Below, one piece after another: positions 16,430 through 42,300 of a stretch of 64,000 nucleotides of DNA; positions within the stretch are counted from its first letter, which is position 1; every line of letters starts with the position of its first letter. The stretch is taken from contig NMRA01000137.1 of the NCBI GenBank assembly GCA_002633005.1, positions 1 through 64,000 on the forward strand, in the 5' to 3' direction. Made by a program: the position numbers and the translations under genes. A model generated the notes under the pieces. The model saw only the letters and a list, made by a program, of their open reading frames with translations, did no database searches and was not told the DNA's origin. Source of the DNA: Phoronis australis (taxonomy: Eukaryota > Animalia > Phoronida).

Positions 16430-17890
16430 TGCTGACTGATGTGGCTTTGATGAAGTTAACTGCTTATTGATGATTAGATATTGAGAAATTTAAACGAACT
16501 TTGGTCGCAACAAACGAGATAGAGAGCAAGACGGGAAGCAGACGCTCGTCAAAGTCTCGTCGTGGCGTAAGTAATCATAGTTCATCTAGTTCTTCCTCTT
16601 CCAGGAAAGCTCTTCAAGCCGAGTTCGCTACCTTAAAATAAGAAATTAGGTTACAAGAAATTGACACTGAAGACTGTGCTGAGTTGAGAGCCATACGTGC
16701 GAATCCCAGCCTTGCGATATAGCCAATGTATGTCTGAATGCCCTTACTGAGACAAGTCGAGACGACAACCCATTATATTGCAGTCATCGGCTGTCCCTCC
16801 CGAAGGGTACACAGAGTTCTTTCCCTGTGTCCAAAAATAGATCAATATAACAAATTTAGCCCAATCCGTAGCTAGTCAAATCCAAAGTAGAAAGATACTT
16901 GCCCCAGAGCATGGGATTTTTATTGGGGAACTTCTGCACTGTCAACATTTGACGTTGAGATCATCAAGGAAATTCCAGACGCTGAGAAGTTGTGTTACCT
17001 AAACTGCTATCTGGTAGGGACAGCAAGGGAAGCCATTCTATCACAAGAGTCCTACCACTCTGCTCGTCCGTTACTAAAAGAAAAATATGGTTCGCCATTT
17101 GCAGTTACTGATACATTCAGGGATAAGCTTGAGTTATGACCCAAGATTGACTCACGTGTTGGAACAGGACTTGGGAAACTGTCAGACTTACTGCGTCAGT
17201 TTGCGCTGGACATGAAGACTCACGAAGGGCTCTATGTGCTGAATGACGAGAAGGAGAATAGGACGATGCTGCAAAAGTTTCTCGGTTGGATAGTGACGCA
17301 GTGGAGCAGGATCGTCACAAAACACAGAGCGAAAACGAAAGCATTTCCGCCATTCCATATCTTTTGCAATTTTATAGAGAAATAATCCATAATCACTTGT
17401 GATCGGTCCGCCTCCTTACATGCTCTGTACAAGGGCCAGCACAACGTTAAGCATTCCCCGACCTCGCCTGGTTGAAAGGCCACTTCCAAAAATCTCTTTG
17501 CGAACACGGAAGATGTGGTCTAGGGAAAAGATCTGCCACATGTGCAGAAACTCTGCAATAACGGCGACAGCTTGTCACGTCAAATGCATTGTGCTTTGGA
17601 TGCTTCCAGAAGTGTCTTCGTTCCAAGAACAGTCGTGTTAAAATGACATGGGACGTATGCTCCAAAGAGACATCCCACAACTATCTACGACTATAATATG
17701 GTCGACAAGAGCTTATCAGGAGCCAGTTCAGAGAATGCTGGTCAACAACAGTCGAATATTGATGCAGCCGAACCTCATTGGTTAAACTTACCTGGTGCAG
17801 TGTCTAAAACGTCAGCTGTTGTCCCTGCAATGCTCTCATATTCTGACAAACCCCACTGTGAACGACTTGCGATGCTTGACACGGTATAAC
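16430..17890 (+). mobile_element. Degenerate BEL/Pao LTR retrotransposon gag region
   Basis: About 16981-17390 reads EKLCYLNCYLVGTAREAI..SYHSARPLLKEKYGSPFAVTDTFRDKLEL*PKI...LSDLLRQ...LNDEKENRTMLQK..GWIVTQWSRIV...FPPFHIFCNFI (DUF1759-type gag), followed by frameshifted Cys/His knuckle remnants. Confidence 0.75.
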
Positions 17891-19136: not shown

Positions 19137-20518
19137 AGTGAAAATTAGTAACGACTTCTAATGGGCGGCACACCATAGGAGCTGGGGGGTATACCCCTAC
19201 TTTTTTCAGTGCTGCGCCGCCCGTGGCCTATGGGCGGTGCACCACAGGGGGCTAAAGGGGCTATAAACCCCACTTTTTTCAGTGCTTTGCCGTTCATGCT
19301 TGTAATTGAAAAGCTGATGCCAACAAGGCAAGTCACAAGAGTCGCTGCTGCGAAAATAACTCAAGTAACACAATTAAATTTAAGTTTATAAATATTCTCT
19401 GACACTTGCATTGTTGTTATGGGTAACAACAGTACTAAAAAGCTGAACGATTGCTCGGTACAACTTGCACTTTTTCATTATTGAGTATGTTAATGCTATG
19501 ACCTTGTGAACTTTCACAACTTCCGTGCTTGCGATTGACTAAAGAGGCCAGCACACAGAGCCACCTCTTACCAAATAATGTAAAATTAGGAGCGACTTAA
19601 AATCATTTCTCACAGGACGTGCAACTTTCCGAATATCAAATGCTTGAAACTATGTCTAACCATGTAAGAAAGAATTGACCTTTTGACATAGTCGCCATGA
19701 AGTGGCGGATTTGGGGGAGGGCAAGGGAGCCATGGCCCCCTCAGTAAAATTCTGTCAGATTCCATTTGGCAGTTCGATAATGCGAATGTCTGACGGGAAA
19801 AATCCTCACCAATACTCTGCCCTGCCCAACNTAAAAATCCTGGATCCGTGGATCCGCTCCTGGTCACAGGATAAAAAGACAGGAGCTACGTTCAGAAAAC
19901 CGCGCGGATCTTGCCACTGTTTCGCTGGGTGCCAACGATGAGCCTATTAATTTTTAGCGACAGTTATTTCCACGAAGTCTATTGAAATGTCGTCAGTCCT
20001 GTGTATTCTTTCTCACTTGAATTGGCCAGGACAAAAAGCTTGTAAAAACTGGCTCAAATATCAGTGTCACACGTTTAATATGGTTCTGTGAGATAACAAT
20101 TGGCAAACGATTCAACCGTCAAATCACTAACATTGGTTGATAGACGGTATTTATTGAACTGGTGAATAGAAAAGCAGGATTAATGTTTTATAATCTGAAT
20201 AGCAAAGTTAACAAAAGAGTATTTGGGTTGACAAAATGTGATAGCGTTCTGTACACAAGTATTATTTTTTTCTTCCCAGGCTACAGCTCTCATGGATGAG
20301 TCATAGCGTATATTTACGCGCGCTCGACCGTTATTTTTGCAGTCAACGACAACTACACAGATTGTATTTCTCAACGAGAGACGCCCAGGACAGTCATGCT
20401 CCACACTTGAACAGTCTTCGTACATGCGTACGTCTATACGCACAACTTGAATAACGCGGTCCTGTTTTGTCCTGGCTTTGAGTTTCCCTTTTAGACAACC
20501 CACTTGCTTTTAACAGAC

Positions 20519-20712
20519 ATGGCGTCCGGCGATGACTTGATGCGTGTAGCGAAGATTCGAAATGATCTCACGTGCCCTGAAATTTCCATAAGAGACATTT
20601 CTATTGAGGACAACGTTTTCGGTAGTGGTGGTTTCGGCAGTGTTCACAAGGGAAGCTACCGTGGAGAAGTTGTGGCTGTAAAGGTAATCGACTGGCGCAA
20701 ATACAGTGAACG
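20519..20712 (+). CDS. Kinase-TRIM-NHL gene exon 1 (kinase subdomains I-II)
   Basis: MASGDD...FGSGGFGSVHKGSYRGEVVAVKVID; donor cg|gtaggt. An acceptor-like ttttaacag ends at 20516, so an upstream exon may exist. Confidence 0.9.
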
Positions 20713-23700
20713 GTAGGTATACTTCAGTTTTGATGACATAAAATATGTTAATTGATTGCTTTTCCTGTGTAAAATATACTGTGAAAACCTTAACCGTTGG
20801 AGCTATACCAAACCCGAGTTAGGCCTATTAAAATATCCAGTACCCTGAAACAAATTTAAATACCCTGTAACCCTTGCCAACACTCAAAAGTTTGGAGCAA
20901 AGTTGGAAACTCCTCACAAGCGTGACCTACGCTTTAGGCGAATTACACGACAACTGTTAGGGAAATACCCACCAAAAACCATAACACCCAATCTTTGATA
21001 CAGAGTGAACTGTGTTTTTGGATGATTCCTTAAACATTTAGTGTTTGTTTAATTTCTTTCTTTGTCGTCCTTTGAACAAAAAAAAACAGGCAAACAGTGT
21101 GCTAAAATGCATTTTCCCTCAGCGGGAGAGGGAGCCTTCCCTCCCGACCTCCCCCTTGTCGCTGCGCGCCTCAGAAACGCGCTTCGCACGACACGTCGTT
21201 CTCACGAATTTGGGCCCCACTTTTCAAATCCTAGCACTCATATCTGTGAATCTTGCAGAAAAAATGGGACTCGCCTATCATACATAAGAAAGATAAGCAG
21301 TCGCAGTATTATCGCTTTTACACTCGCTATCAGGATCGCGCATCTAAGGCCATTTATCACCGCTCGGCGGCTATCGATCACACGATGCTAATTTTCACGG
21401 ATTTGAGTGTTTGTTCAAAGACTTGTTTAAACTCATTGGCCTATTATTTTCAGCCACAAGCAAATGATATTGGCCTGTAAAGAGGCACGCTCAATGTGCA
21501 TGGTTGAACACGCGAGCATTCTCAAGATATATGGCATCATTTTGGACGACTTGTGTGGGCTAGTACTAGAGTTTATGGAGCATGGCTCTCTCAAAGATTT
21601 GCAGATTCACACAAAGTTGGAAGGTTTTCACATTCCGATCGGTATACAGGTACTGTCATGTTTACTGAACTGTCTTCTCTAACCCAGATTGACAACTATT
21701 TATTCTTCTTAATACGCCTTTTAAGATCATATTTTTTGTAAACAAAGCGTCATGCTTGTACTAGTCCTGCTTGAAACCTATTACAAGGTTCTCTTTTGCA
21801 ATCTACTGATTAGAAATTCACACACCGAGGATTTATACATGCGCTAAACTAAACAGAGATTTATGGGAATATGTCCTATTGTCTGCGTGTTGTGAAAAAG
21901 TAATTGAATACGGAATGAGAAAAGAACAGCTGCTTGTGAGAAATGAAGTGTATTCAGGGGGAAAAGATGCTGTTTGTTAACAGATTCTTTTCTCATTGGT
22001 ATATTTCTTTCATTTTTCAATCGTTTCTCATCGACTTTGCATGATCTTGCGAATATAACTGATTAACGGTATGTGTTCCTAGTTGCAGGGTATTGATTTA
22101 GTAAATTGTGCAAAGTATGTGCTAAAAATTGTCAAATAGGGCCTACGTGGAACTCGTACAAATGAACATTCAGTGTAAGTTCTAAAGTATCCCATTCCAA
22201 CCTTGAAAAGAATACGTTTGGTTAAGGTTATGTCGAAAGTCAGTCAGGGTCTTTATTTTGTTAAGATAGGCCAGTCAGCTCCCAAGGATACTCACACAAC
22301 AGTTGCCTTTTACTATCGTAATTTTGCGAGATCTTGCTTGACACGTGGTCCGCGGGACGCTGCACGGTCGGTTCGACGAAGTGAAACAAGTGTAGACATT
22401 TTCTTACGATGACGATGTCTTAGAATAGACCTGACAGCCTTAGTACATTGAGCAGCCTAGTAATAACGTGTTACAGGTTCAAATGATGAGAGACATATCG
22501 GAGGCTTTGCGGTACCTGCACAGCCAGAATTTGGTTCATGCTGATCTTAAACTGGGCAACATTTTGATAAATGACAAAATGGAAGCCAAGGTAATCACGT
22601 TATAATTTACATGTAGGACAAATGAAGCGAGTTGGGGTCGTTTTTTGTCTTCATTAATGTCATACCATGGGTGTATGTGTGCGTTTGTGTTAATTAATTG
22701 GTTGGATTTGAAATTTTCACGGCACTAGGCTTGTATGGGTCAGTTCAAGAACCAGTCGATTAAACGACCATTTTTAAATGTCAAACAACGAACTTTTGCT
22801 TTATTACGTATTATGGTTATATTACACCTTAGCATCACTCTTAGAAATCTAACAACGTGTACTGTTTTAGCTTCGTGTTGGCTTACTACAAATGGATTTC
22901 CCTTCTGAGCGATTAACAGGTTACAATAAAAAGCATGTGTGTAAAATCTTTGACTGTTTCACCAAGAGTGTTCGATTTCTCTTTCGTTTTAGTTGGGAGA
23001 CTTTGGGTTGTCCTCATTTCAAGGCTTCACCAGCGAACTAACCAATTCCTCTCCCGCTAAAGGGACTTTATCGCACATGGCTCCAGAATTGTTCAATCCG
23101 CAATTAGTTGGGAGAGACATGCCCAAGAACTCTCCTCAAACGGATGTGTGGAGGTAATTAACATGTTGTCTGAACTGTAAGGTAATTTTGATTCATTTTG
23201 ATAACGTTAACGACTAATTGAAACAAAGTGTCTGATATTCGTCGAGGAAAACGTTTATTTTTGTTATAAAACTTATGATTGTTCAGAAAGTAGTAAATAT
23301 GTAATAAACGTTATCGATTTTTGAAGAGATAGACGTAACAATCATGTGATTGTTAGATCAGACACCTACGAAAATAATGTTTTCCTTTTTGTAGCTTTGG
23401 AGTTATGTTATTCGATCTCATGAATGAAGAATCACTGTTTCACGGTGCGTAAGTAAATTCAGTTGTGAGTATTCGCTTTTCTGTGAACTTGTTCCTCTCT
23501 GATAACGTGACTATAAGCCACCAGCAATTAAACCATAGGCATATTTAGGGGAGGGGCAGGAAACCAGGTCTCCACCAACCCAAAAAAAAAGAAAATGTAG
23601 CCAGCTTGCAGCTTTTGGGGTTTCCGACCGGACATTTTATCCGGAAAATTGTGGTTCCCTCCATTTACGACATCCTGGACCCGCCAGTGTAAACAACACC

Positions 23701-26700
23701 ACGTCTGTGTTGGTTCATTTGCTGGTGATGTGATTCGAAGCTATTATGCATTAAAGTAGGATTTTTGTCAGTATAGTAAAAAATTATTGTGATAATTCAT
23801 TTGAGGATTTTTTTTGTACGCTTGTATAAATCACACGCCGAGTACTGAGCACTAATGCTGTTTCAGGTTTGCAGCCAGATGTCATTAAACATCAAATTGG
23901 AAGAGGAATTAAGAATTACTGCATGGCTGAGGTAATGAAATGCGAACCAACTATTTTCGTAGAGGTGGTATCAACCTGCCTTGAGTATCAGCCGACAGAT
24001 AGAACGGATTTTGAGAGTAAGTGCTATCCGACCAAATTTCCAATGACGTTTAAAGATTCCTGTTTTATTCCATTCTATGTCCCTGTTTCCGTCTTTATGG
24101 TATTTCTCACTCTGGTTGAGATGGGCTCATGTTGAATGTCACAATCCATTTAGGCAGTGCTGTAGTGGTAAAATTAGAGCTAAGTAGGCGCTCAAAGCAC
24201 ACCGTATCACCTTGAGCACTGAACGTAACTTACGGTGCTTAGGTGCTACGTTCAAATGTCAAAAGGTGGTTGGCTGCGCCTACGTGCGCCTACGCCCCAC
24301 TACAGCATTGCATTTTGGTGAAGACGGTTGAGTTCGCCCACCTTTACTACCTAGCCTAAGTACAGGTTACAATTTTGCAAGGACGGTAGAGCGCTATTAT
24401 GAAGATCATTTCTACATTTCTAAAGAGAATTGTTGATTTGATTTTGGCAGACAAATCATCATAATTTTTCCCGCTCGATTTTTGGGTCCGATTTTGGCGG
24501 TTTTTCTACAACCGTTACAATTCATTTTTTGCTTGGTAGAAAATCATTTTGCTATTTGATAACTTCCAAAGGGAACGGTGTCTCAGAATCTCGATTTAAG
24601 TACTAGTTTTTTGGAACGTAGTCCTCAGGAATAAAGAGTGTTCTAAAAAATGGATAATGAAAAAACTAAGACCTATTTAAAAAATCTGTGATCGGATTCT
24701 CTCGAAAATTCCGTTATCAACATGTTGACAAAAAACCAATATGATTGGACGGACGATATCTTTAAAATCTCTGTTCAAAGAAAAAATAAAGGCAAGTAAA
24801 TACGAATGTTAAATTTTGTCAGGAAATTTATTTGCCTTTCAGAAAATATGTACTTTGTAGAGGACACATCTAACAGAATTTAACATATTTGCACACAAGT
24901 ACAACTTGGCAAACAAGGTTCACAACTAACTTTTTACATCGTTGCACGAACACACCCTATTGGTACAAAGACACGTGTATTTGTTCGACATTCTGCGACC
25001 TACGCTGTAGGGCTATTTTACCAGCTACAGGAATCAGAATAACGAAACGCCAAGGTAAAACAAAAGAAAACAGCAAAAAGCGTCATTTATAAGCAGTCCG
25101 AATTATAAAAATGACCACTTTATAGTGAAGGTGACTTTTTTGTTTGATTTGCCTTGGGTCATGGCCTAACAGCAGGCCACGCGATGTCATGTGCACGCCG
25201 TAATTATGACTGACAAAGATTTGACAAAACGTCAGATGACATTTGTAAAACAAATCTGCCGAAAGTATAACATAATTCACTGATGTATAGTTAGTAAGTT
25301 TAATACGAAATTCAGTGTAGTATTACAGTAGCCATAGTTCGTTAGTTAAGTAGACGAAGTAATGGCTAGTGCACACGTCTGTACCTTCACGTGCCACTTT
25401 TTACAAGTTCGACTTTTGGAATTGATATTTTACCTTCCCATAATACTTTTGGTATTGAAAACCATTCTAACTAATCCTAATATCGTTTGAAAAACACCAC
25501 TGACTCGATATAGTACCTATTTTCTTGACCAGAATTTGGCAAATAAAATGGCTAAAATTCAAATTAAACCAAAGTCGCGTGTACTTCCATTCCGTGGCTA
25601 TAATCATGAACAAGCTTAATCGGTCTCCTGGAAAAACCAGATCCGCTATTTTTTGTTAGAGAATGAAAGGGCACGTGGCTTAGGATATTTTTCGTATCTG
25701 GATCTAAATGGTGATTTGTTCCTATTTATAACGTGTAAAAATCTGTTTAATTTGGATTTTTACTGCCTCATTTGTTGCAACTTTTACCTTTGAAGGACGA
25801 ATTCACCCCCAGGCCGGGGCATAAACAGAAACTACATCCACGTGCTTGTTCGTGCTATTGTTGAATGTATTCCGTATTTAATCCATCTGAAGTACATGTG
25901 AACTGACAATGTTCTAGAAACTTGACCTTAATAGCTTCCGGTGAAGTACAATGTTCATGATAACGGGGCGAAATTGCCCCTGCTCTTCCTTGGATGACTC
26001 GAATGGGCCTACTCTTTCCCATTAAATAGTTCCTTTCAATGGCTGTCACCCTCTTCGGCTTCATTTGTCATTGACGGTACATGTACGTGCTCTAAGGATG
26101 ATTGGCAAGTGGCTAATGGGTTGTTATTGCAGTGGAATAAAGTGGCCTATATGTGTTGGAAACCGAAGTTTCACTAAAACAAATCGTTTCGTTTTAGGCA
26201 TAACACGCTTACTTCACGACAAGTACATTGGAGAGTTTGAGAAGTCTTACCGCGATGACATCCACACTTTGAATTACTTTCTTCAGGTAAATTTTTTATG
26301 ATGAAGTTTACTTGGCTACTCCCACTATCATCAGCCCCATGTGAGGCACCACCTATAGACCACGTGCGGCGTAGCACTGAAAAAGGTGGGGGCTATAGCC
26401 CCCCNGTGTTCACTTGAGCTTCTCTGAAAAATCGAGAGATTCGATTGGCACACAAGGGGCACTGGATTACTGAATTTAAAGCGTTGTTCGAGCTGTTGTC
26501 ACGAAAAAAATAAACATTTAAATTTCTTTTTGTTGAGAACCTCTGGTTTATACTTCGCCTATAGAGTTAGAGAGAGCTCATTTTTATGTTGTTCAAACAT
26601 GAACAACTACAATATAAGCCCAGAATATGATTTATTTTTGTACTTAAAATAGCCATTTTTGCTACCACGCAAGACTTGTCATCTCTTGTAACCTTACCAA

Positions 26701-29700
26701 AACTTGATCATGCTATGTTTAAAATACCTGAAAGCCATCATTATGCAATGAAAATTCAAAAAAAAAATGTGAAGTTCATCAGAAGGTAGGCTTAACTTAA
26801 ATGTCCTAATGGTGCAATTACGGCCAATTTTGTGCATTAATTTGACTTAGACACAGCCTTAGACCCAGTAGCAGATTAAGAGGAGGCCAAGGAGGCCATT
26901 CCCTTCCTCTAGAATTCTTCCATATTCCATTTGACACTTTGGGAGGGGGCGAATGTCTGACGGGCATAATACTGGCCAATACTCTGCCCTGCTCCACAAA
27001 CTTAAAATCCTGTGCCTTAGCTATGAAGCTGAGTTTTAATCAAAATATTTCGCTCAAAGATTGAAAAACCACAAATAGTGCTATCTACTTGACCTACTTC
27101 AGGTTAATCGAGGAATCCTGTTTTGCAACATACTTCTCATTTGGCGGTGACTGGGATCTTCCTATTCTCGCTGGCTTCGAAATACTTTTCGTCGAACACT
27201 TATTTTTTCATCGTTGCCTTAACAAACTGCCACATCATGATCGTACGATTCTCTCCTGAAAAGCACCGCCTGTTGTCTTTATCGAAGCGTTTTCGGGTAG
27301 TCCAAAAGCTACTCATCAAGAACGCCGTTTAGCGACAGCGAAGTTGCCTCCGATATCTTGTTTGTGTGTTTGTCGAGTGCGTGACTTTTCGTAAGGGGGC
27401 GGAACTTCCGATAGATAAATTGCGATAACCAATGCGTATTCATTTTTCCATATGTCCGTATCAAATGACGCGTTTTTAAAGAAAAGCATTTTGCATTTTT
27501 TTTTTTAATTTTAAAATATGCAGCGATCAGGTAAATTGCACTGATCCCCAGCCAAACATTGCTACGAAGCCAATAAACGTTGTGCCTTGTGGCACTCAAA
27601 CATTTCTAGGTGCAGAAGAAACACAGTACGGATTACGCATTACGGACTCCAGGAAAGATCTCTTACGATTTACGCATTACGTACGAATGGAAACAATACT
27701 TAATTGCACAAATAGAAACAGTGACTTTCTCAGAATGGGTGCCTTGTTGTGCATGTTTCAACGTACATATGTACATTATTACGCAAGGTGCTAAGCAAAA
27801 GCTCATTTGGTGGTAAGCAGACTGGAATTACATAAAATCAACAAACATTTTTGCTATTTGACCAGCTTATCCGTCTCTCATTTCTGATCAGTGAGCGCTT
27901 TTCTGCAACATCAGCCCAATTTTATTTCGATGCGCACGAAGATCATAGAACACTCCCATCACCTTTACCGTTTGAGATGTGTGAATGCAGGCACTTTGGC
28001 GTTTCTCCTTATTACATATATATATTAAGCCAAGCATACCAAATTACTTCATTCAGTCAAGCTCCTTTGTAATATGTAGAAAATCAACAAAAATACTTAC
28101 GTTCTAAGCCTGTTTTTCCATTTTCAGAAGACAGCGTTGGACGAACAGGCACCTCGTGTGACGGTGCTTAGCGAGCGAACAGTATATCGAGAAGTAATGA
28201 ATTGCCCTGCTCATAAAGATTATCCGTTGCAATTTTATTGTGAACAGTGTGAGATTCCGATATGTTCACTTTGTCTAACTTCTACTCATAACGAACATAA
28301 ATTGAAAGATATGAAAGAAGCTGCAAAAAAGGTTGACGATGCTTTGCGTAAGTTGCTGGAAGCTTGCAGAGGCGTAACACAGCTCTCAAAAGAGTTGTGT
28401 GAGAAGCTAAAAAGAATACTTGAAAGCCTGGAACAGCAGCAGAAAGCTTGTGAGAGTAAAATAAAGCAATTTTACACTGCGCTTCTTGCACTGACAGATA
28501 CGAATCTCGAAGAAATCAAGCGTTGTGAAAATAAGGCAATTGTTCAGTTAAATAACCAAATGCAAGTGGCTAGAAAACAAGTAGAAGATGCATATAACAG
28601 AGCTAAGCGGAACAGAGCGATGGTGTCTACTGCTGTAGAGGATGTGAGTAAGATGCTTTCCACAGCACAGGAAGGTGAGAAGCTACAGAAGTACAAGAAA
28701 ATTAGGTCACGTCTTGAAAATTTGAATGTTGAACGCATTGAAGCTCGGATGAAGAAACCAGCGTTCAAACTGCAAGATGGGAAAGTTTCAATTGCTGAGT
28801 TAAGTGTAAATATTGGCGCAGAGTTGGGAGATGAAGATGTTTCATTCAAATTTTCTGTCAATTTTGCAAAAAATCTTACAGTTTCCAGTGAACCACCAGT
28901 TCCACGTGTGACCCGTCCACCTGCTGTTAAAGAACCTGTTCAACTTGAACGAAAATTTAGCAGCGTGCTTGAAGAGGGAAAAGGCTGGTGTGAGGGACTG
29001 GCAGTGGGTGGTGGGGTGTTGGTTGTGACGGACAGTGTCAACAAAAATGTCAATGTGTTTGATAAAAATGACTTGAAACTGAAATTCACGTTCAACCAAA
29101 CCCAACACCGACTGCAGTGCCCCGGTGACGTGACATGTAACAGACTTGGTGAGATCTTCATCATGGACCGCGGCATTCACGGTGTTGTCAAGTATGACGC
29201 TACAGGTCGACTGATGGAGATTTACCCAGGTGTGTATAAAGGTGACGGGTATATTACATGTCACGTCGACCAGCTGATAGTGGCGGATAGAGGGGGCGGA
29301 CGGCTGATGTTCACTGACTTTGATTGTAAGGTCCAACATCAAATAGGCGCCCGCTCCCTGGGTCTGAGTGAGTTTTCTCCCGGCAGTGTATGTGTGGATG
29401 AGAACACTGGGCATCTGGTGGTGACCCAGTGGACACCTCCTCTTGTGTATGTGATTGACCACACACAGCCGGCCGTTATACACACATTCAGTGATCAACT
29501 GTGTGAGCCGTGGGGTGTGTGTGTGGATCAGTTCGGCCACATTCTCGTGGCTGACCTCACCAATCACCGAGTAATTCAAATGACACCTGCTGGTGCGCAC
29601 GTGATCACCACGAGGGGTGATGTCTCCTCTCCTACAGCCATATGCACATCAGGCCCCGGGCAGGTGTATGTACTGGAGTTGAGAGGTGTTGTGAAGATAT

Positions 29701-29720
29701 TCAAATATCTTGATATTTAA
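20519..29720 (+). CDS. Spliced gene (8 exons, ~848 aa): RIPK-like/TKL protein kinase fused to B-box, coiled-coil and NHL repeats
   Basis: Exons 20519-20712, 21454-21649, 22477-22590, 22993-23153, 23395-23444, 23867-24016, 26198-26286, 28128-29720. All introns are GT..AG with matching phases (2,0,0,2,1,1,0); total 2547 nt = 849 codons including the stop. Kinase motifs GSGGFG, VAVK, alphaC-Glu (KEA), HADLKLGN, DFG, GTLSHMAPE, DVWSFG, followed by a B-box, helical segment and NHL repeats. Confidence 0.85.
21454..21649 (+). CDS. Kinase-TRIM-NHL gene exon 2 (subdomains III-V)
   Basis: ttttcag acceptor; HKQMILACKEARSM...HASILKIYGII...GLVLEFMEHGSL; donor cag|gtactg. Confidence 0.9.
22477..22590 (+). 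CDS. Kinase-TRIM-NHL gene exon 3 (catalytic loop)
   Basis: ttacag acceptor; VQMMRDISEALRYLHSQNLVHADLKLGNILINDKMEAK; donor aag|gtaatc. Confidence 0.92.
22993..23153 (+). CDS. Kinase-TRIM-NHL gene exon 4 (activation segment)
   Basis: ttttag acceptor; LGDFGLSSFQG...KGTLSHMAPELFNP...QTDVW; donor ag|gtaatt. Confidence 0.92.
23395..23444 (+). CDS. Kinase-TRIM-NHL gene exon 5
   Basis: ttttgtag acceptor; completes DVWS then FGVMLFDLMNEESLFH; donor g|gtgcgt gives the phase required by exon 6. Confidence 0.85.
23534..23689. mobile_element. MITE with 5-bp TSD (taaac), in kinase gene intron 5
   Basis: taaac|cataggcatatttagg ... cctggacccgccagtg|taaac. Confidence 0.7.
23867..24016 (+). CDS. Kinase-TRIM-NHL gene exon 6 (subdomains X-XI)
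   Basis: tttcag acceptor; LQPDVIKHQI...VVSTCLEYQPTDRTDFE (C..P..R..F motif); donor a|gtaagt. Confidence 0.88.
24155..24310. mobile_element. hAT-type MITE (8-bp TSD)
   Basis: catttagg|cagtgctgtagtgg ... ccactacagcattg|cattttgg. Confidence 0.7.
26198..26286 (+). CDS. Kinase-TRIM-NHL gene exon 7 (end of kinase fold, linker)
   Basis: ttttag acceptor; (S)ITRLLHDKYIGEFEKSYRDDIHTLNYFLQ; donor cag|gtaaat; bridges phase 1 to phase 0 as required. Confidence 0.75.
28128..29720 (+). CDS. Kinase-TRIM-NHL gene terminal exon: B-box2, coiled coil, six NHL repeats
   Basis: ttttcag acceptor at 28127. B-box CPAHKDYPLQFYCEQCEIPICSLCLTSTHNEH; long E/K/Q/L helical region; NHL blades e.g. LQCPGDVTCNRLGEIFIMD, FSPGSVCVDENTGHLVVTQ, LCEPWGVCVDQFGHILVADLTNHRV, SSPTAICTSGPGQVYV. 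Stop TAA at 29718-29720. Confidence 0.93.
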   Translation, partial: KTALDEQAPRVTVLSERTVYREVMNCPAHKDYPLQFYCEQCEIPICSLCLTSTHNEHKLKDMKEAAKKVDDALRKLLEACRGVTQLSKELCEKLKRILESLEQQQKACESKIKQFYTALLALTDTNLEEIKRCENKAIVQLNNQMQVARKQVEDAYNRAKRNRAMVSTAVEDVSKMLSTAQEGEKLQKYKKIRSRLENLNVERIEARMKKPAFKLQDGKVSIAELSVNIGAELGDEDVSFKFSVNFAKNLTVSSEPPVPRVTRPPAVKEPVQLERKFSSVLEEGKGWCEGLAVGGGVLVVTDSVNKNVNVFDKNDLKLKFTFNQTQHRLQCPGDVTCNRLGEIFIMDRGIHGVVKYDATGRLMEIYPGVYKGDGYITCHVDQLIVADRGGGRLMFTDFDCKVQHQIGARSLGLSEFSPGSVCVDENTGHLVVTQWTPPLVYVIDHTQPAVIHTFSDQLCEPWGVCVDQFGHILVADLTNHRVIQMTPAGAHVITTRGDVSSPTAICTSGPGQVYVLELRGVVKIFKYLDI

Positions 29721-29749
29721 TTAAATTTACTTGGAACATCAATATGGTG

Positions 29750-29755
29750 AATAAA
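29750..29755 (+). promoter_or_regulatory. Probable polyadenylation signal of the kinase-TRIM-NHL gene
   Basis: AATAAA 30 nt after the stop codon, followed by GT/T-rich sequence. Confidence 0.55.
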
Positions 29756-30252
29756 TGTTTATGAGAACGTTTGGGTGAAATAGTTTATTTAATGCATAAA
29801 GGAAATTCATGAATCCTGTACATTACGTTGTTGTGAGCAGAGGACTTTTGTATTTTGAGAGATTTGTACCCCAATATTCGTAAGAATTAATGGCCAAAAC
29901 TAGATATTTTATACCTGAAGGCCTATGTTTTAAATGATCGTTGTAATTGTTGGAAGCGGGGCGGGGGGGGGGNACATGCTTCCACCAATAATTTCTAGGC
30001 ATCAGGGTTAAGTCGTGTAGGCGATGGACCGGGGGCAGTCGAAAAAAGAAAGACAGCAAAACATGGAGATGAGCGAAAATTCAAGAGAATGTTTGTCAAC
30101 TATCAGTGCATGATTTATCCCTTGAGGTCACTGGCCACGGCGTTGCTCTTAGGCGGCCCCTGTCTAGCAGGATAGGTAGTCTTTTTTACATTCGGTCTCG
30201 GTCCATACGCAGAATGTCGAGTGGGATATTACTTCATCTACGCCACGAGGTA

Positions 30253-31299: not shown

Positions 31300-31715
31300 T
31301 TAGATGAACCTGCCCCACTCTTTAGGTTGATGGTCAACAGTAGGTTTGACCATTTGTTTTAAAGTGTGCTTATACTTCTCACACAGGCCATTACACTGAG
31401 CATGATAAAGTGACGTATTGTACGACCTAATTGACAGCAACCTCTGAACTTCTTTCATCATCTCAGAATTAAACTGGGACCCCTTGTTATTTAACAACTC
31501 GTTGGGAATATCAACCAACGCAAACATATTAACCATTGCCTCAGCCACTGTGGATGTATCTATGTTAGCCAACGCCGCAGCTAACGGATAACTAGTAGCC
31601 ATGTCCACCACAGTACTGTTAAAATTCAACTATGAACTATGAAAACCAACCAATCAAGTCTAGGGCATGACAGGCATTTTGTCTAACGAAGCATTGGGTA
31701 TCTTGCCTTCAAGAC
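31300..31715 (-). mobile_element. Gypsy/Ty3 integrase fragment (degenerate)
   Basis: VDMATSYPLAAAL.NIDT.TVAEAM..MF..VDIPNELL..KGSQFNS.MMKEV.RLL.I...TSLYHAQCNGLCEKY..TLKQM matches the rve core pattern; second catalytic Asp degenerate. Confidence 0.85.
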
Positions 31716-32738: not shown

Positions 32739-33348
32739 TCAAACCTTTGAATCAGATTGGACAGAAGAAAGCACACATTTTGGGCAAGCCATAGTCTTAA
32801 GGCCTTGGCTACGGTAGTACTTGTTCAACAAGTTAGCACTATTGGGTAACGAAGTTCTTCCCTTGCTTAAGTCCTTTGCAAACATCGGGAGAACACTCTC
32901 ACTGAAATTCTTTTGACTGAAATGATGTCCGCAAGTAAACACAACCACATTCAAACTCCCGCTGTCAATCTTATCGACATTGTCTTCAAAGCACGTACTG
33001 TTGCTTTCCTTCTCTATTGCACTCTTCAGCCCGCTTACATCAGCATTGGACAGAAACACGTGGCTTCGCTGCTTAAGGTCTTTACGCAAGTTCTGTACGA
33101 TTTCAAGCCATAGCTTTTCCGACGGAACCCCATGGTCGCTAGGAGCCTCGACATTAGGCAGCATGCCAACGTCACACAAGTAATTGTCGAAAGTCGATAG
33201 ACAGCCACCGGCTATTGGGTCACTCTCAACGATCTGCTGGATGACTGTCGACGCCACCTGTAGACAGAACTTGGTACTGAACTTGCTCTGCATCGCTGGT
33301 GGGACTCCGCCCCATGCAGTGCAATCTTCTGGATTTTCTTTAGTATTT
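32739..33348 (-). CDS. Terminal exon of the RCC1-repeat gene with RING-like Cys/His motif
   Basis: Acceptor tcacag; VVVFTCGHHF...MACPKC; stop TGA at 32739-32741. Confidence 0.85.
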
Positions 33349-36300
33349 CTGTGAATGTAAGAAACAAGAAAGCATATGTTATAGACAACATTCTACTCTT
33401 AGGTGTATTAAGAGCACAAAAGCATCTTTTGCTTGACACCAGGGGGAGGGGTTGACAGGGATGAAACAGAATTTCTTTCACTCACAGACATTTTGACAAT
33501 TTTTGCTTGGATCCATATACTGGCAAGAAGGCGGAATACTGTCCACCAACTACCCCATAGTGATCTTGCAACAAGGTGTATTTCGTTCTGCCGGCACTAC
33601 TGACTGCGACTCAAATGCTAGTCCCAGCATTGCAGGATATTAAACAAATATAATCAACACTATAGAGAAAGAACTAGGTAAAATGTCAGTTTGTTCAACA
33701 CAAGTGCTAGTACTGAGGCTCACAAGGAGAAATGTCTTGACAATGAGTGTAGATTGTAGATTTGGTATCCCTATTCAACTCATATTCCCCTTATGCCTTA
33801 TCTGTATGCTTATTATAAGTTGTACTTACATCAAAATATTATGAGCTCTAACTTGGTTATCATGAGCAAATTTCTGAGGCAGTACATTAAAGAGACAATC
33901 AGCAATAGCCAGTCCAGGTTCCAGATTTCAAATGCCAGTAACAGGTCATAAATTAAACACATTAAAAGTTTGTATTGCTTAGATATCAACCATTCCATTT
34001 CACAAGTCCACAGCTAAATGTACTGGACACAGACTGAATTGATAACAGCGACTTAAGTTACAATCAAAAAGGACTGGCAAGTTATTCTATCATGATTAGA
34101 CTGTGTTTGAGAAATGGAAGGCATCAAAATTCTAAAGTGCCTGTAAACTGACCTGAACAAAACTTGACTCAGGAAACAGCCGACGGTGTCAAGGTGTGAA
34201 AGCAACAAGTGTTCCAATTTAGCCACACAGAGGGCACTGGTATGCCAGAACTGGATCAGATGCCTTAACAGATGCTGCAAGGTCTGGTTTCTGCGGCTCT
34301 CGCTGACGTTCTGTTCCTGACATTTCCTGGTCACAAAAAGAATTACATAAATCTTAAAAGTCCGAGTCCAGTGGACCAACATAATCCACATTCGATGCAC
34401 TGGTTTAAGTGTTTTGACACCTGTATAGTTGCCAAAATCCCAAAATGAAAAAGTGGGACATCTGGATCTAAGCCATACCAAATGGGAAAGGTCTGTCGCA
34501 ACGTCCAGAACATCATCTCAACGGCATTTTTTGGTTGTGCCCGAGAAATAGCGAAAAATGAGTGCAATTAGTGTTTGAAAGCACAAAAATATGAATCCAT
34601 TCAGTACATAAATAATGTCATGGGTTAAAAAGCGGGACATTCTGATGTTGTGGCAGGATCAAGACAATGCTAATTAAAGTGGGACAGTTCTGCCAAAAGT
34701 AAGACAACAGTTAAGACCATACAATTATGCCGTATGCGGCTTGATCCGGTGGTTTAGAGCGTTTATTTCGGTCATCAGAATGGGATTTTGTTTATTTGAA
34801 AAAAAATTGACAACTTTACTGCCAGAATACTTAAGATAAAACTAGACACTCAAATTTAACTGTACTGTTCCACTAATCCGCAACTGCACTAACGTTCACA
34901 AAGAGTAGACTTACACACTAATAACAGAAAGACTGTAGTTATGATGAGCTGAGAAGAAAAGCCAAGACACTTAACTGAATAATTACCTGATATAAAAGGC
35001 AACTACTTTTTGTACCAACTCTGTAAATCCCTGGTGTTCACTTTGATAACCAAGATGCAGTCCTTTCAGTCTGTAGTACAAGGCCTGGAAAGCAGACGTC
35101 AATTGATACAAGCAGACGTCAACTGATACAAGCAGAAGTCAATTGATACAAGCAGACATCAATTTATACAAGCAGACGTCAATTGATACAAGCAGAGGTC
35201 AATTGATACAAGCAGACGTCAACTGATACAAGCAGATGTCAATTGATACAAGCAGCCGTCAATTGATACAAGACTCAAGATTGCAGGAAAACTATACCAA
35301 TGGCTCTGAAAAAGTAGACTAACAATGGATTTTAACTTACTTTGTCTGACCAATTTTTACCAAGGATTTCTGAAAGAGATCCCTTCCAACAAGACTTGTT
35401 TTGCATGGTGGGCACGTACATTTTTAATGCGAGCAAGGTGACGTCACTTTTCACGGTTGGTCTCATATTTCATTATTTTCAAATATTCACTCGTCAACCA
35501 GTCAGTCTCATTTTACAAGTATCTTAGCTGCTGCCGAACAGCAATACAAGCCTCCACAAGAGTACCAAGGCTGGGAGGCTGATACTCAACTATAGTGGCC
35601 TTTATAATGACTTTCCTATTTCTGACCTCCTCGATAAACTTGGTTGGTACAGCCTAGTTAGAGGGTGTGACTTTCATTTAAACTTAATGGTGTACAAAGC
35701 CACACATAGCCTCACACCTACTAAATTCAAAGCAGTCAGAGATTCTCACAATTACAATACTACAGCGAGTTTTTATGGCTGCCTGGTACCAGATAAACCT
35801 ATGGCAAAAGAATTTTTTCCTACAAAAGTGCTTTTGCTTACAACCGGCTGGGGACTTTCATCGCAAATGTGCCCAATGTCCACGTCTTCAAACAGAATTT
35901 ACTGGGACTGTGTGCATGGTTCGGGACTGTAGCCCTCAGCTCATCATTATTTTACTGTATTTTATCTTATTTATTCATTTAATTGACTGTGTACATTAAC
36001 TAATTTTTATACTAATTTCTTTTATTTATTAATCTTTTCAATCTAATTGTACATAGGTCTCTGTATTTTACTTCATGTAATTATTTCCGACAGAGCTCAC
36101 TTGAAAATCAGTGTATTCACTTATAAGTGGTAACCAGTCTTTTAAAAAAGTTTAAATAAATAAATACCACCACAACTTTGCGAATGACCCTAAGAGTTGT
36201 TTTTGAATGCAAAAACACTTCCCAGAAAATAATACGTTTCCAAAATCCATAGTAACACAGTTCATAAACACTACCTTGATACCTGGTACAGTACACAACA

Positions 36301-39300
36301 AAAGTAATCAGAAGAAAAAATGTCATGTCCCGTCACAACAGCTAATTCAGTGAACACCAAAAATGGCAGGTAATAGTTATTATGGGACCAAATCTCTAAT
36401 TCTAGAATGATTTATTCACCATAAATCCCCCTTCATTCTCCATCATGAGGGAAGATTACTCTGATGATGTATTTGGTTTCAGCCCAGCCATCATAATGGA
36501 GAATTCCAGGTCATTTTGTCTGAATACTTTTTGACTTTACTGTACGGTAATGCTACGGTAACACATTCTTAGATGCATTCCATAGACCCAAGAATCTCGC
36601 TAAAAGCGGGATCATGCAAGACCACGGTCTGTGAGATTAGAACACTGAATTATGGGATGCAATTCACCGTTTCTGTTCTCTGTTCGACAACTGAAGACAT
36701 TTCGCATCAAGTGCACGGATAATGTCTTGGGTCTATGGAACGTAGCCCTCTTCAACGTACCTGTGGGTATACACCCTGTACGTGATAGATGTCAGCAGCT
36801 GTCTGGTAGTCACCACTGTCAATACACTGACGTGTCAGCTTAATCAAGTTCACATGCTCAGGCCAGTTCTGAAGAAAAGTGGGACTATGGTTGTACACAT
36901 TTCAAATACCATACGCCTCGGCTGCCTCAAAGGCCAAGGCAAGCCCCAAACACTAAAGTTCAACTCTTTTATTGTTAGAAACCCAGCCCTTTACGCACTG
37001 ACCTGCACATTTTCACAAGAATTGCCGATCGCTAAAGCCCATGTTATTATGAATGCTGATGTAAGTTCTTTTTGTGTGGAGCAAGGAAATTATCACATTT
37101 ATTTAGCAAAGACTCAGATAGTTACCTAGTTTTTGAAGCATGGGAGATAATTGGCCTGTGTCTCACCACTATCACAAGTCAAGATTGGCATCTGCATTCG
37201 AAAAATTGCTCTTCTCACTGAACAGTGATTTTGTGATGCAGTTTTCATTTTAAAAACCACCTTTCTAAAATGTTTATTGTTCTTGTAACCATAGTTTGTT
37301 GTTACAGATCAAAGTGTGTACAGTTAGTTCGGGGATGGAGCATTACAACGTCACATGACAGGTTCAATAGAAATGGTTGGACTGTATTATGTTTTAATAC
37401 GTCTAAACGCTCTTACTTTCTCTTTATCGTCTCTAAAAACATCCCTAAAGAAAACTTAATTTATTTGTACACGTGCAATTGTTTTTCAACAAAATACAAG
37501 AAACAGATTTTCATGGTCCTCTTTAAGGTTACGTTTTAAGTATTCCTCAACAAAAAAATCATTTTCCATCAGACGGTTATTTTTCCCACGAAATCTGTGG
37601 TGATTTTTGCTAGTACTGCAATGATAACTTAGCATAATTGAATGCATTGAACATGTATTAATGACTTGCAAATTTAGGGTTTTGTTTACTTTATGGAATT
37701 TTTATTGATTTTTCCATGAATTTTTACTCATTTGTCATTTTTCACAAATTTTTCATGCACAGACGGAAATGTTTTTGTCTTTGTCCAGCTTGATCAGGTA
37801 TCCACGAGAACTGGGTATCATGATTTATGATATCAAAAGCAAATTCTGAGAGGAGATGGTTGCTCTCGAGTAAAAAAAAAATATGAAACACAGGCCAATG
37901 AATATCTCAGTGAACACCACAGGCAAAATAATATATCACTCTATGAAACCAGCACGGCGCCAGTGAATAACTCAATTTGAAACACAGACAAGCGAATACT
38001 TCAATGTAAAACAATGACAATACAATATTCTCTTAATGTATGAAACACAGGCATGTGAACTCCTCAATATAAAAAACAGTTAAAAAGTAGATACCTCAAT
38101 AATGGCACCGATCACCCTGGGTGAATAAACCGGCTGTGACATCATGCTGAGATTAGGCAGGGGAGGTAACTCCTGCTCTGACTCGTAGCAATCATCACTC
38201 CACTGAAAACAGGAAAAGCAAAGTTATGACAAGGCAGTCGCAGACAGCAATATCCCTGCCAGAGGCACCGCTACAGGGGAGCTGCATGCACACGAATGTT
38301 TCCATGCTGGAATGAGAGATAACAAAGAAATTCAGGAATTACAGTAGAGTCTCAAAATACCAATGATATGGACTTTAGCACTTCATGAGCATACTTTTCT
38401 GAAGTTCGATCAAAATCACCATTAAAATGTGGGGGGCATTGAGCACAGAAAAGAAGCTGAAGAAACCCAGTCCTACATTCTTGGCAGAATTTGGTCGAGA
38501 CAAAATTGTCCAATTGCAATTAATTTAAAATTAGTTTTTTAATCAGGTTCCACACCAAGAACGTAGAGATTGCGGCTTGACCAGGAAAGAAAACATATTA
38601 AGTTCATGCTTATGTGAATATTTTTTTTTACTATTTGAAAAATTAGTTTTTTGAGAGAAGGAAAATTGCCTTCATTTCATATAAATTAGTTTACATTGGG
38701 CCATGCAATAACATTTGTCACATGTACGTGCCATAATTCAAAACATTAAAGGAGCATGCCACCCAAAAAACAACCTAATTTGCATCAATTTAGATCGAGT
38801 AGTTCTACTCCATAACGACACGTGCGGTTGCGTTACCTGACACCTGACGGCAGACGGAGGTGTTGAAATTATCCAATNNNNNNNNNNNNNNNNNNNNNNN
38901 NNNNNNNNNNNNNNNNNNNNNNNNNNNNNNNNNNNNNNNNNNNNNNNNNNNNNNNNNNNNNNNNNNNNNNNNNNNNNNNNNNNNNNNNNNNNNNNNNNNN
39001 NNNNNNNNNNNNNNNNNNNNNNNNNNNNNNNNNNNNNNNNNNNNNNNNNNNNNNNNNNNNNNNNNNNNNNNNNNNNNNNNNNNNNNNNNNNNNNNNNNNN
39101 NNNNNNNNNNNNNNNNNNNNNNNNNNNNNNNNNNNNNNNNNNNNNNNNNNNNNNNNNNNNNNNNNNNNNNNNNNNNNNNNNNNNNNNNNNNNNNNNNNNN
39201 NNNNNNNNNNNNNNNNNNNNNNNNNNNNNNNNNNNNNNNNNNNNNNNNNNNNNNNNNNNNNNNNNNNNNNNNNNNNNNNNNNNNNNNNNNNNNNNNNNNN

Positions 39301-42300
39301 NNNNNNNNNNNNNNNNNNNNNNNNNNNNNNNNNNNNNNNNNNNNNNNNNNNNNNNNNNNNNNNNNNNNNNNNNNNNNNNNNNNNNNNNNNNNNNNNNNNN
39401 NNNNNNNNNNNNNNNNNNNNNNNNNNNNNNNNNNNNNNNNNNNNNNNNNNNNNNNNNNNATTTTGAAACAGAACGGTCAGTAATAAACGCCAACATGGCA
39501 ACTCGCAATCCCGACTTAGGACGAGCTAGAGCGGCTCATCAATCCCGACTTCGCAGGTGGATCGTTAAGTTTTACAGGCTATCAATTCGAACAGGAATAC
39601 AGTTATGAAGAAATACTAAAGAGGCGCCGTGAACAAGCTCAGACAACGGAACGTATGGAGTTATTTGGTAAGCCGGCATTCGTGAGGCACTGTCGACGTT
39701 GTCTGCAGGCCACAGACACGGAGATGTCTTACTTGCTATTTACAGTGTACATTTCATTCTTCACTACCACGAACCACTTCCTAAGCATTTCGGACTCTCG
39801 AAGAAGTGAAAAAAACACGATATACTCGCTTTCCTCGCAGCTGCTTAGTTCTGACAAGCGGGAACGATACACTGCAACGTAGCCGCATTCACTATGCATA
39901 TGAACCGCTGACGTCGCTAGTGTCGTTTCTCACCTTCCTCACAGGTTAACGCGACACCTCTTGGCAAGGTAAGGTCGACCGTACGCGAAACGATGTGGAA
40001 ATAGACCGATTAAGACGGCAAAAAAAGACTAATTAAATCGGGTGGCATTCGCCTTTAATGTGGTCACATGACACGGGTTATTGAACCAATAAGCGGGTAG
40101 AGAATGCAGATGTCGTTTTATCACAGATTTAAAATATAAGTAACTGCAAAAAAATCATCCAAATAGTACGTACTCAATTCCCAAGTAAACGTCTCCAATT
40201 TTAACCAGCAAGACAACCCTACCTACCCAGTACTCTGTTGAAGAGTCTTGGCGTCTCCTTCCATCACTACTGTGTGCTGACCCCTGGTGGCTAGCCTCTT
40301 TGAATGAGGCAAAGCCCGGCAGCAGAGTGGGCCTGGTCCGGTCCATGAGCACTTCTCGCTCGGGCATCTGGGATACACGCAGCTGCTGAGATAGGCCGTG
40401 CAAGCCCAGCTGGCCTTTGTCATTACGACCCCACGCCCACGCCTGACTGCTGTCGTCCATGGCAACAGTGAAGTTGAGGCCGCAGTCAACATGCTGCACA
40501 CTGCAGTCGGCAGGCAGGGTGACACGAATTGGCAATTTCTGGCACAAAGATGGCAAAATGAAATAAGATATATTCAAGCAATGAGTTACTGTCAATAAAA
40601 ACAGACAATCAACCAGTCAATTTTTGATATAAAATTCTGTGCTCACAGTAGTTGTTAAGCTTATTAAACACTTATTAACAACTACATAGTTGTGTCCAAC
40701 TAGAGCTTTCAAGTGCTCTATGACCAAACTCAATATGACCATACAGCATTTAATCACTCTGACCCTCATTGTCACCTGAATGACCAAAGGCCAATGATGA
40801 AATTAATACTCACTGAGTTTTGAAGTTTCTTAATTTAAAGAGGCTACAAACCTGCCTTCCGTCACAAAAAATTTGGAGCACTTACTATTATGACAAATTT
40901 AAATTTTAGTAAATTTTAAGTTAAAACTTAGACTTGTCTGAAGTCCGTTTTCAAGAAAGAGATGTTAAGTTTGACTTAAACTTTTGACTTAATTCTCATT
41001 ATCTTACCGGATGTGGAAGTTTCAAATTTTGGAAGTTGAGACAAACTTTATACTTAAGTCATAAATAAACTTAAGTCACTTACTTGGAACGGGCCCCTGG
41101 TCTCAAGCAATAAAAGACATATAAATTATTTACAAAACCAAAAATCACTTCTCATGTAAATAAGGAGAAAGTTGAAACCAAAACTTTGAAGCAGCAAGGG
41201 GTCTAAATTAAAAATTACTTTCAGTTGTCTTTCTTTAACAGAACAACAAGCGCCACTTTAAAGGGAAACTCACTGCCAAAATTGCAAAGTACACGCCAGG
41301 GTTTTGTGAAAAGCGACTTACAGCTAGAAATTGGGTTTTTCTTTTCTCATTGTTTCTGACAATTTAAAACACACTTGAGCAAGGGTGCAAAGTCTCTGAG
41401 AACATACTGCTAATTACTGAGATAATTTCTATAGACTATTTCTAGAGAGTCATTTGGTCATAACTACCTGGCTAAACCTTTTTTAAGTTCTGTCTTAAGT
41501 CACTTTCATTAGACAGATGCTAGGTTATTCATCCATACAAAATTAGTCTTAAACCATGAAAATGATCTCCAAAACCAACAACATTCACTGTGCTGGCTCG
41601 TAAGGACTATCAAAACATTATAAGTATAGACAGGTTACCCAACCTTTACCTTAGCAACAAGTAACCTTTTGACTCCATCTGATCAGAGAATCCTGTTGCC
41701 ATCGTGCCGTGGAAAATTTTTGTTAGCGTTAATCAGCTTATTTTATTATTTTTATTTTTAAGTCGTAAGTGGGTAGAAAATTCCCTTTTAAATGCCCAGG
41801 GTTTTAACCTGCAGAAATACGATGCAATAATCTGGTAAAAACGTTTTACCTGCTCCTGCCTGTGACTCAACCCCAGCTGACCTTCGGCATTACGACCCCA
41901 GGAGTAGAGCAAATTACGCGACGTGAGACAGACAGAGTGAGTCGCACCGCAAGCAACCTAAAGGGAATAGATGTACTGCATCTTCATTCTCTCAATGTGA
42001 ACCTTCATTTTATATAACTACAACAATGGGAGGCTCGTGCACGATATTACCTCACAACAGTACAGCAAGCAAATACTTTGTGGAACATTCAGCAACAAGA
42101 GGACACCTACTATGACAAATGGCCGCCACGCATCCAGTGCATTGATGTGTATTTAAACCAAGATTAAAAGCGAAGCTTTGGCCCATCTATGTACTAGTAA
42201 ACCAACATTATTAATAAATGAGCAATGGAAACGCATGTCATTGCTTTATCAAAGGTGCAGTTTGCATTACTTTATTTGACTACAATTTCCTCATTATTTT

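Follow-up and report, generated by a model that had tools for sequence, protein, structure and literature searches.

The TRIM-NHL proteins of class VII, or subfamily C (TRIM2, TRIM3, TRIM32, TRIM56, TRIM71/LIN-41, Thin, and Brat), carry a B-box2, a coiled coil, and a six-blade NHL propeller, in that order. We have analyzed a gene from the phoronid Phoronis australis in which the same modules, in the same order, follow a protein kinase. It lies on the forward strand of contig NMRA01000137.1 (assembly GCA_002633005.1), and the window studied consists of the first 64,000 nucleotides of that contig. Compared with the TRIM-NHL proteins, the fusion protein has no RING, no B-box1, and no filamin domain, it begins with a kinase of 300 residues, and it does not keep the RNA pocket of LIN41. 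In the TRIM2/3/71 subgroup a filamin domain stands between coiled coil and NHL, whereas the fusion protein has none there. The same filamin-less body is found in the expanded RING-less B-box-coiled coil-NHL ("TRIM2-like") genes of molluscs and echinoderms and in the protein P0135 discussed below, although the mollusc and echinoderm genes listed have B-boxes or a RING in front, where the fusion protein has its kinase.

Three other systems share part of this design. The RIP kinases RIPK1-5 and the RIPK-like proteins of amphioxus also consist of an N-terminal TKL kinase and a C-terminal interaction module, but the C-terminus of the RIPKs is a death domain, CARD, RHIM, or ankyrin region, and that of the fusion protein is B-box-coiled coil-NHL. 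Pyrin (TRIM20/MEFV), whose architecture is given as PAAD-B2-CC-PRYSPRY in the available part of PMC2533329, is likewise a TRIM body with a signaling domain at the RING position; it has a PYD and a PRY-SPRY, in contrast to the catalytic kinase and NHL propeller of the fusion protein. The Mycobacterium PknD (PDB matches 1rwi/1rwl), like the fusion protein, combines a kinase with a six-blade NHL propeller in a single polypeptide. In PknD, the propeller lies outside the cell, separated from the kinase by a membrane helix, and there is no B-box or coiled coil, while the fusion protein has no membrane segment. What appears to be new in the P. australis gene is the kinase at the RING position of a B-box2-coiled coil-NHL body; its component modules, the Pyrin-type RING swap, and the pairing of kinase and NHL in PknD were already known.

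Joining eight exons between positions 20519 and 29720 gave an open frame of 848 amino acids plus stop (2547 nucleotides) with no internal stops. All of the introns are of the GT..AG type, and their phases match across the eight exons. Matching phase is weak evidence of fusion, because 13 chance phase-matching exons pass loose splice rules in 24017-28127, and it was rejected as proof. The RNA reads settled the fusion where phase alone could not. We used three raw-read runs (X1, X2, and X3), which come from one study, and one contig run carrying the same species label. Joints were sought in reads on 20200-28900 at 93% likeness, covering 18-19% of each run, and were listed from three reads up. 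Six were listed, all GT..AG, and the first mates all lie on the minus strand, which places the RNA on the plus strand as in the usual stranded library. The joints 21649/22477, 22590/22993, 23153/23395, and 23444/23867 occur in 11, 7, 5, and 7 reads, respectively. The two that matter most for the fusion, both proposed in a first-pass annotation of this DNA, were found as well: 24016/26198 in eight X3 and two X2 reads, and 26286/28128 in six X3 reads with six starts and 52 letters on the short side. From exon 2, the joints chain without a break into the B-box exon. This is one spliced, expressed gene in which a kinase is joined to a RING-less TRIM-NHL body, and its eight-exon structure is, from exon 2 onward, practically certain. 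The in-frame splicing given in the first-pass annotation is correct; its count of seven small kinase exons plus a linker is not, as there are six kinase exons and an 89-nucleotide exon, seven small ones in all (Table 1).

The depth of X3 reads is ~8-12 on the kinase exons, where X1 and X2 have next to nothing, so expression is mainly in one of the three samples. An in-frame stop occurs at 20492, 27 nucleotides ahead of the ATG at 20519, and RNA reads cover this upstream stretch. A RING ahead of the kinase is therefore unlikely, provided that the stretch is unspliced.

Table 1. Features of the kinase-B-box-NHL gene and its product (positions in the window; residue numbers refer to the 848-residue protein unless marked as model numbering)
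Feature	Position	Strand	Evidence
Probable 5' untranslated region of first coding exon	20281..20518 (left edge approximate)	+	Read depth of 8.4 in X3 over bin 20200-20490
Kinase exon 1: start codon, glycine-rich loop (residues 35-40), catalytic Lys55	20519..20712	+	Pfam Pkinase positions 5-37, E 0.08; reads cover it
Kinase exon 2: helix C Glu75, hinge	21454..21649	+	Pfam PK_Tyr_Ser-Thr positions 48-90, E 7e-6; joint to exon 3
Kinase exon 3: catalytic loop His151-Ala152-Asp153...Asn158, non-RD	22477..22590	+	Pfam Pkinase 102-140, E 6e-10; motif scan
Kinase exon 4: DFG 171-173, activation segment, APE 198-200, Asp219	22993..23153	+	Best PDB match RIPK3, E 3e-4
Kinase exon 5 (50 nucleotides): helix F	23395..23444	+	Exon joining; RNA joint
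Kinase exon 6: divergent C-lobe to subdomain XI Arg284	23867..24016	+	No Pfam match; one PDB match, E 0.96
89-nucleotide exon, residues 289-318: likely end of last kinase helix, and linker	26198..26286	+	Both joints read; helix inferred from position after Arg284
Last exon, without introns: B-box2, coiled coil, linker of low confidence, NHL propeller of six blades, stop	28128..29720	+	Pfam; AlphaFold; joint from 26286
B-box2 zinc finger, residues 344-375	28203..28298	+	Pfam zf-B_box; seven Cys/His ligands the same in all 31 proteins aligned; eighth, Cys344, by motif match
TRIM-type coiled coil, predicted long helices	28311..28724	+	Helices 62-122, 127-179, and 182-199 of the model, pLDDT ~70-85
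Six-blade NHL beta-propeller	28938..29717	+	AlphaFold; VIA-align Z 33.7, root mean square deviation 2.2, 250 aligned versus TRIM71 NHL 9jur
Candidate polyadenylation signal	29750..29755	+	Sole AATAAA in 29720-30100; plus-strand transcript depth 0 in bin 29728-30128

Exons 1-4 match successive parts of the Pfam kinase profile, and a motif scan found the catalytic motifs kept (Gly loop 35-40, Lys55, Glu75, His151-Ala152-Asp153, Asn158, DFG, APE, Asp219, and Arg284). Judging from these intact motifs, the protein is predicted to be an active kinase. The catalytic loop reads HAD, with Ala in place of the HRD arginine, which makes this a non-RD kinase. Non-RD kinases are enriched in immune signaling. 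Exon 4 has its best PDB match in RIPK3, and seven of its nine PDB matches at E<=10 are RIPK3 or RIPK2, the other two being BAK1. Exon 2 matched JAK1, ITK, TAK1, RIPK4, MLK4, and RIPK1, exon 1 gave weak matches to the TGF-beta receptor, LRRK2, and IRAK4, and exon 3 matched PLK. The assignment to a TKL-type kinase is fair, with "RIPK-like" understood as a resemblance. When the kinase was first called RIPK-like, the resemblance was rightly seen, the activation segment being nearest to RIPK3; a place in the RIPK clade does not follow, as the other exons match other kinases. Membership in RIPK1-5 was likewise rejected as established, since exons 1-3 prefer other kinases and only exon 4 favors RIPK3/RIPK2. 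No death domain, CARD, RHIM, or ankyrin C-terminus was found by Pfam scan, and a RHIM-like tetrad is absent from the protein. A hydropathy scan of the 848 residues found no signal or membrane segment; the highest 19-residue value, 1.67, lies within the kinase N-lobe.

The last exon matches Pfam zf-B_box (E 1.5e-11) and NHL (E 1.1e-13). It has no Pfam match to RING or filamin, and B-box1 is also absent, there being one B-box only. Pfam does detect Filamin in the proteins P0003 and P0005, and in alignment the fusion protein has a gap at this place. For the B-box and coiled coil, the PDB matches are TRIM3 (8amr), TRIM72, and TRIM28. Both AlphaFold models show six four-strand blades, with mean predicted local distance difference test (pLDDT) values of 63.9 (4 sequences) and 73.7 (31 sequences). 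The propellers of TRIM3, Thin, and TRIM2 match within ~1-2 Z of TRIM71, so the four are about equal. Pfam and AlphaFold thus agree with the initial description of this exon as B-box2, coiled coil, and six NHL repeats without a RING. Proteins with a B-box and coiled coil but no RING are defined as TRIM-like or "incomplete" in the available part of PMC2533329, and by its sequence the body of the fusion protein is such an incomplete TRIM-like protein, with a propeller of the NHL class VII type.

The nearest end-to-end relative found is P0135, a protein of two B-boxes, coiled coil, and NHL with neither RING nor filamin (26% identity over 522 residues). A HMMER search against 1.84 billion representatives listed 150 matches, of which 149 were NHL-repeat proteins matching in several stretches and one, P0135, matched end to end. 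In the Atlas, the last exon resembles B-box/NHL clusters of molluscs and echinoderms (scores 0.94-0.96), with no kinase family among the best 10 of 30 matches; exon 4 drew generic kinase fragments only. Word searches gave, for the last exon, five weak matches in 7996 candidates, all of them lacking a kinase family, and for kinase exon 4 none among three candidates. With the filamin-NHL part of P0005 as query, no kinase family was found among the best 120 of 1179 matches. The sequence collections seem to consist mostly of intronless gene calls, which would leave them nearly blind to spliced kinase-NHL genes. P0158-P0276, which we take to be sponge proteins, make up a family of very many closely similar paralogs with RING, B-box, filamin, and NHL. 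Of these, 18 of the best 120 of 1179 share a longest contig of 1,064,899 bases, suggesting a tandem array.

The literature searched, which leaves most subscription papers outside, contains no description of a kinase-B-box-coiled coil-NHL protein in the titles and abstracts listed; as no InterPro architecture search is included, such proteins may already be present among automatic database entries. None was found among 276 fetched proteins either, in keeping with the view of the first-pass annotation that no such protein has been characterized. In the portions available, PMC1266030 reports one Leishmania NEK kinase with a B-box, PMC3503706 has no kinase-bearing TRIM, PMC12373286 has nothing that bears on the question, and the RIPK surveys PMC9573974 and PMC11507063 do not mention NHL or B-box. 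The available text of PMC9573974 does describe many domain mixes among amphioxus RIPK homologues, and that of PMC2575513 describes receptor-effector shortcut fusions as common in amphioxus immunity.

RNA reads also bear on how this gene and its relatives vary. Among the differences listed, all X3 reads depart from the window at 13 bases in exons 3-7, affecting 12 codons. The amino acid is altered in 11 of these; 10 of the 12 fall within residues 225-311 and two within residues 131-224, and none hits a catalytic motif. That 11 of 13 base changes are non-silent has P 0.018 at a ratio of nonsynonymous to synonymous rates (dN/dS) of 0.3, and P 0.45 at dN/dS 1. The listed differences fit either diversifying selection or relaxed constraint. 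At the end of the propeller (29327-29727), X3 depth at 90% likeness is 170, versus ~5 at the B-box. X3 reads have loose ends at 29555 (453) and at 29444 (170), and 72 reads rejoin at 29631. The break points fall in blade 5 (29555) and blade 4 (29444), in each case at the loop that joins the second strand to the third, on the face that binds the ligand in LIN41, and the loop sequences differ in the consensus of the loose ends (hand translation; agreement 0.66 and 0.82). These observations point to close paralogs with altered binding faces at blades 4-5. A second copy of the gene was not found within the 64,000-nucleotide window. Reads of propeller paralogs also occur in X1 and X2, without kinase reads.

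Our preferred reading, to which we give about an even chance, is that the protein acts in the cytosol as a one-chain sensor-kinase, activated by clustering of its propellers, with a role in innate defense. The gene probably arose when a kinase gene of several exons acquired the body, free of introns, of an expanded invertebrate RING-less, filamin-less B-box-coiled coil-NHL gene, via the phase-0 acceptor just ahead of B-box2 and with loss of B-box1. The available part of PMC8251876 describes the TRIM coiled coil as an antiparallel rod of 170 A with higher-order activation driven by the B-box, and that of PMC10492769 describes RIPK4 as active only as a dimer. By analogy, the coiled coil would form an antiparallel dimer that holds two kinases at opposite ends. 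Since the rod keeps them apart, dimerization alone would probably not activate the kinases, and clustering would. The propellers would bind a repetitive, probably non-RNA ligand, on which the dimers would cluster; contacts of propeller with ligand and between B-boxes would bring kinases of different dimers together for trans-activation, and the activated kinases would then phosphorylate their downstream targets, in place of the ubiquitination carried out by a TRIM. The first-pass annotation had oligomerization through coiled coil and B-box driving phosphorylation, which we would keep for clustering and not for simple dimerization, given the separation of the kinases in the antiparallel TRIM rod (PMC8251876, available part). 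In its action the fusion protein would, we infer, resemble a RIP kinase that has acquired a new tail for sensing. An immune role seems plausible; compatible signs are the codon changes in exons 3-7, the loop divergence of the paralogs, the expression mainly in one of three samples, and the non-RD catalytic loop.

The kinase and the B-box-NHL part could instead belong to two neighboring genes joined by occasional read-through splicing. The kinase exons had been said to have no stop of their own, which does not hold, as read-through of exon 6 or splicing to an acceptor at 24843 would end the frame. Both the in-frame stop and the usable acceptor would suit two genes, as would an X3 depth of ~5 at the start of the last exon versus ~8-12 on the kinase exons. 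However, only the fusion joints are listed from 24016 and into 28128, with 8 and 6 reads, numbers similar to the 5-11 reads of the joints within the kinase. No joint to 24843, nor any other into 28128, was found with at least three reads; neither a separate kinase ending at the 24843 acceptor nor 5' exons of the B-box-NHL exon's own are thus among the listed joints, as the proposal of a fusion would have it, and 24843 was rejected as the main kinase end. The two-gene explanation is largely refuted and, in our judgment, highly improbable. A single protein could also be an RNA-binding kinase, its propeller binding RNA like that of LIN41, Brat, or TRIM56 and the RNA triggering or localizing the kinase. 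TRIM71 and Brat are among the best sequence and fold matches, and a net charge of +11 makes the coiled coil basic. The RNA surfaces of NHL domains have diversified in evolution and change fast (PMC5908797, available part), and the NHL-like domain of TRIM56 binds Zika RNA (PMC13236048, available part). Ten RNA-contact residues are given for the zebrafish LIN41 NHL in the accessible text of PMC5908797; we placed them via TRIM71 alignments and motif register, blades 3-4 being less sure. A basic residue survives at only one of the ten (Lys628 = Arg666), and the four arginines and the tyrosine that flank the blade prolines in LIN41 are Trp, Cys, Gly, Gly, and Glu in the fusion protein. The propeller, moreover, has a net charge of -6 and an isoelectric point of 5.9. 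RNA binding of the LIN41 type is unlikely because of the single kept contact and the acidic propeller, and a LIN41-type pocket was rejected on the same grounds; the comparison concerns the LIN41 surface. The suggestion in the first-pass annotation that RNA is the NHL ligand is therefore disfavored in its LIN41 mode, and we consider an RNA-binding kinase very unlikely.

The other two explanations accept one gene and concern what its product does. The propellers of TRIM2, TRIM3, and Thin dock host substrates or cytoskeletal/vesicle partners, and the fused protein could be an ordinary targeted kinase whose propeller does the same, acting in development or upkeep with no pathogen ligand. The about equal fold matches to TRIM71, TRIM3, Thin, and TRIM2, the intact catalytic motifs, and the fact that nothing in the data ties expression to infection all agree with this. 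The rapid divergence of the C-lobe (residues 225-311 hold 10 of the 12 codon differences listed) and the divergence of the paralogs at top-face loops do not, and no conserved orthologue was found in the searches; we think a targeted kinase unlikely. Drift offers a different account, in which the gene is a young, transcribed chimera of an expanding family with a weak or dying kinase and little function. Listed differences compatible with dN/dS near 1 could be caused by such drift, two of the three samples show little or no expression, the gene sits among mobile-element remnants, and the C-lobe exon matches no kinase profile. A drifting gene is not expected, however, to keep 848 codons free of stops and frameshifts, with no coding indels listed in the reads, and to keep all catalytic residues and zinc ligands, only two of the 12 listed codon differences lying in residues 131-224 and none in a catalytic motif. 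This account we regard as quite unlikely.

Several points weigh against the sensor-kinase with its role in defense, or against parts of the gene beneath it. The exon 1/2 joint, 20712/21454, fell below the three-read listing, though both exons are ~8-11 deep in X3, so that the Gly loop and Lys55 are tied to the rest by sequence alone. The fusion joint is known from six reads of one run, and all three runs belong to one study. Sample identities are coded, and the uneven expression can therefore be linked to neither tissue nor infection. The excess of amino-acid-changing differences is equally compatible with neutrality (P 0.45 at dN/dS 1), the variant reads may derive from an allele or a close paralog, and the difference counts are those of the listed rows, with 21 further rows outside them. 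In the 276 fetched proteins no kinase was found at E<1, and thus no second kinase-B-box-NHL protein. TRIM-NHL proteins also have many non-immune roles.

The gene may be a member of an unrecognized, polymorphic intracellular family of "TRIM kinases," a possibility that we find doubtful. A non-RD kinase would have been put at the RING position of TRIM-NHL proteins more than once in animals, so that ubiquitin ligases activated by clustering became immune receptor kinases activated in the same way, whose propeller faces vary. Clustering on a target activates TRIM scaffolds, proximity activates RIP-type kinases, and a natural expressed fusion combines both. The kinase-TRIM fusion thus offers a direct test of the TRIM rod as a general clustering switch with a swappable output domain, as in Pyrin. 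The invertebrate B-box-NHL expansions are large and unstudied, and an enzyme-bearing member offers a simple readout, autophosphorylation, for propeller ligands. Some caution is needed, as shuffled architectures are abundant in invertebrate genomes and the function of the fusion is inferred.

The gene is flanked by mobile-element remnants at 16891-17385 and 31300-31629, matching DUF1759 (E 5.5e-5) and an integrase-core fragment (E 0.003). Short dispersed repeats occur in its introns (24155-24307, 26333-26490, and 26867-27012) and upstream (19184-19290 and 19701-19842), and they draw many reads of other transcripts on both strands. On the minus strand, 32739-58836 holds exons of a long convergent neighboring gene. 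The open reading frames at 32739-33392 and 58195-58836 have no Pfam match, and that at 40155-40616 has RCC1 repeats (E 3e-9). Elsewhere in the window, a duplicated element (6341-8009 versus 38746-40058) is 93-98% alike and spans a gap of 582 bases at 38878-39459, and three tandem duplications are found at 55569-56997, 42705-43322, and 35090-35272.

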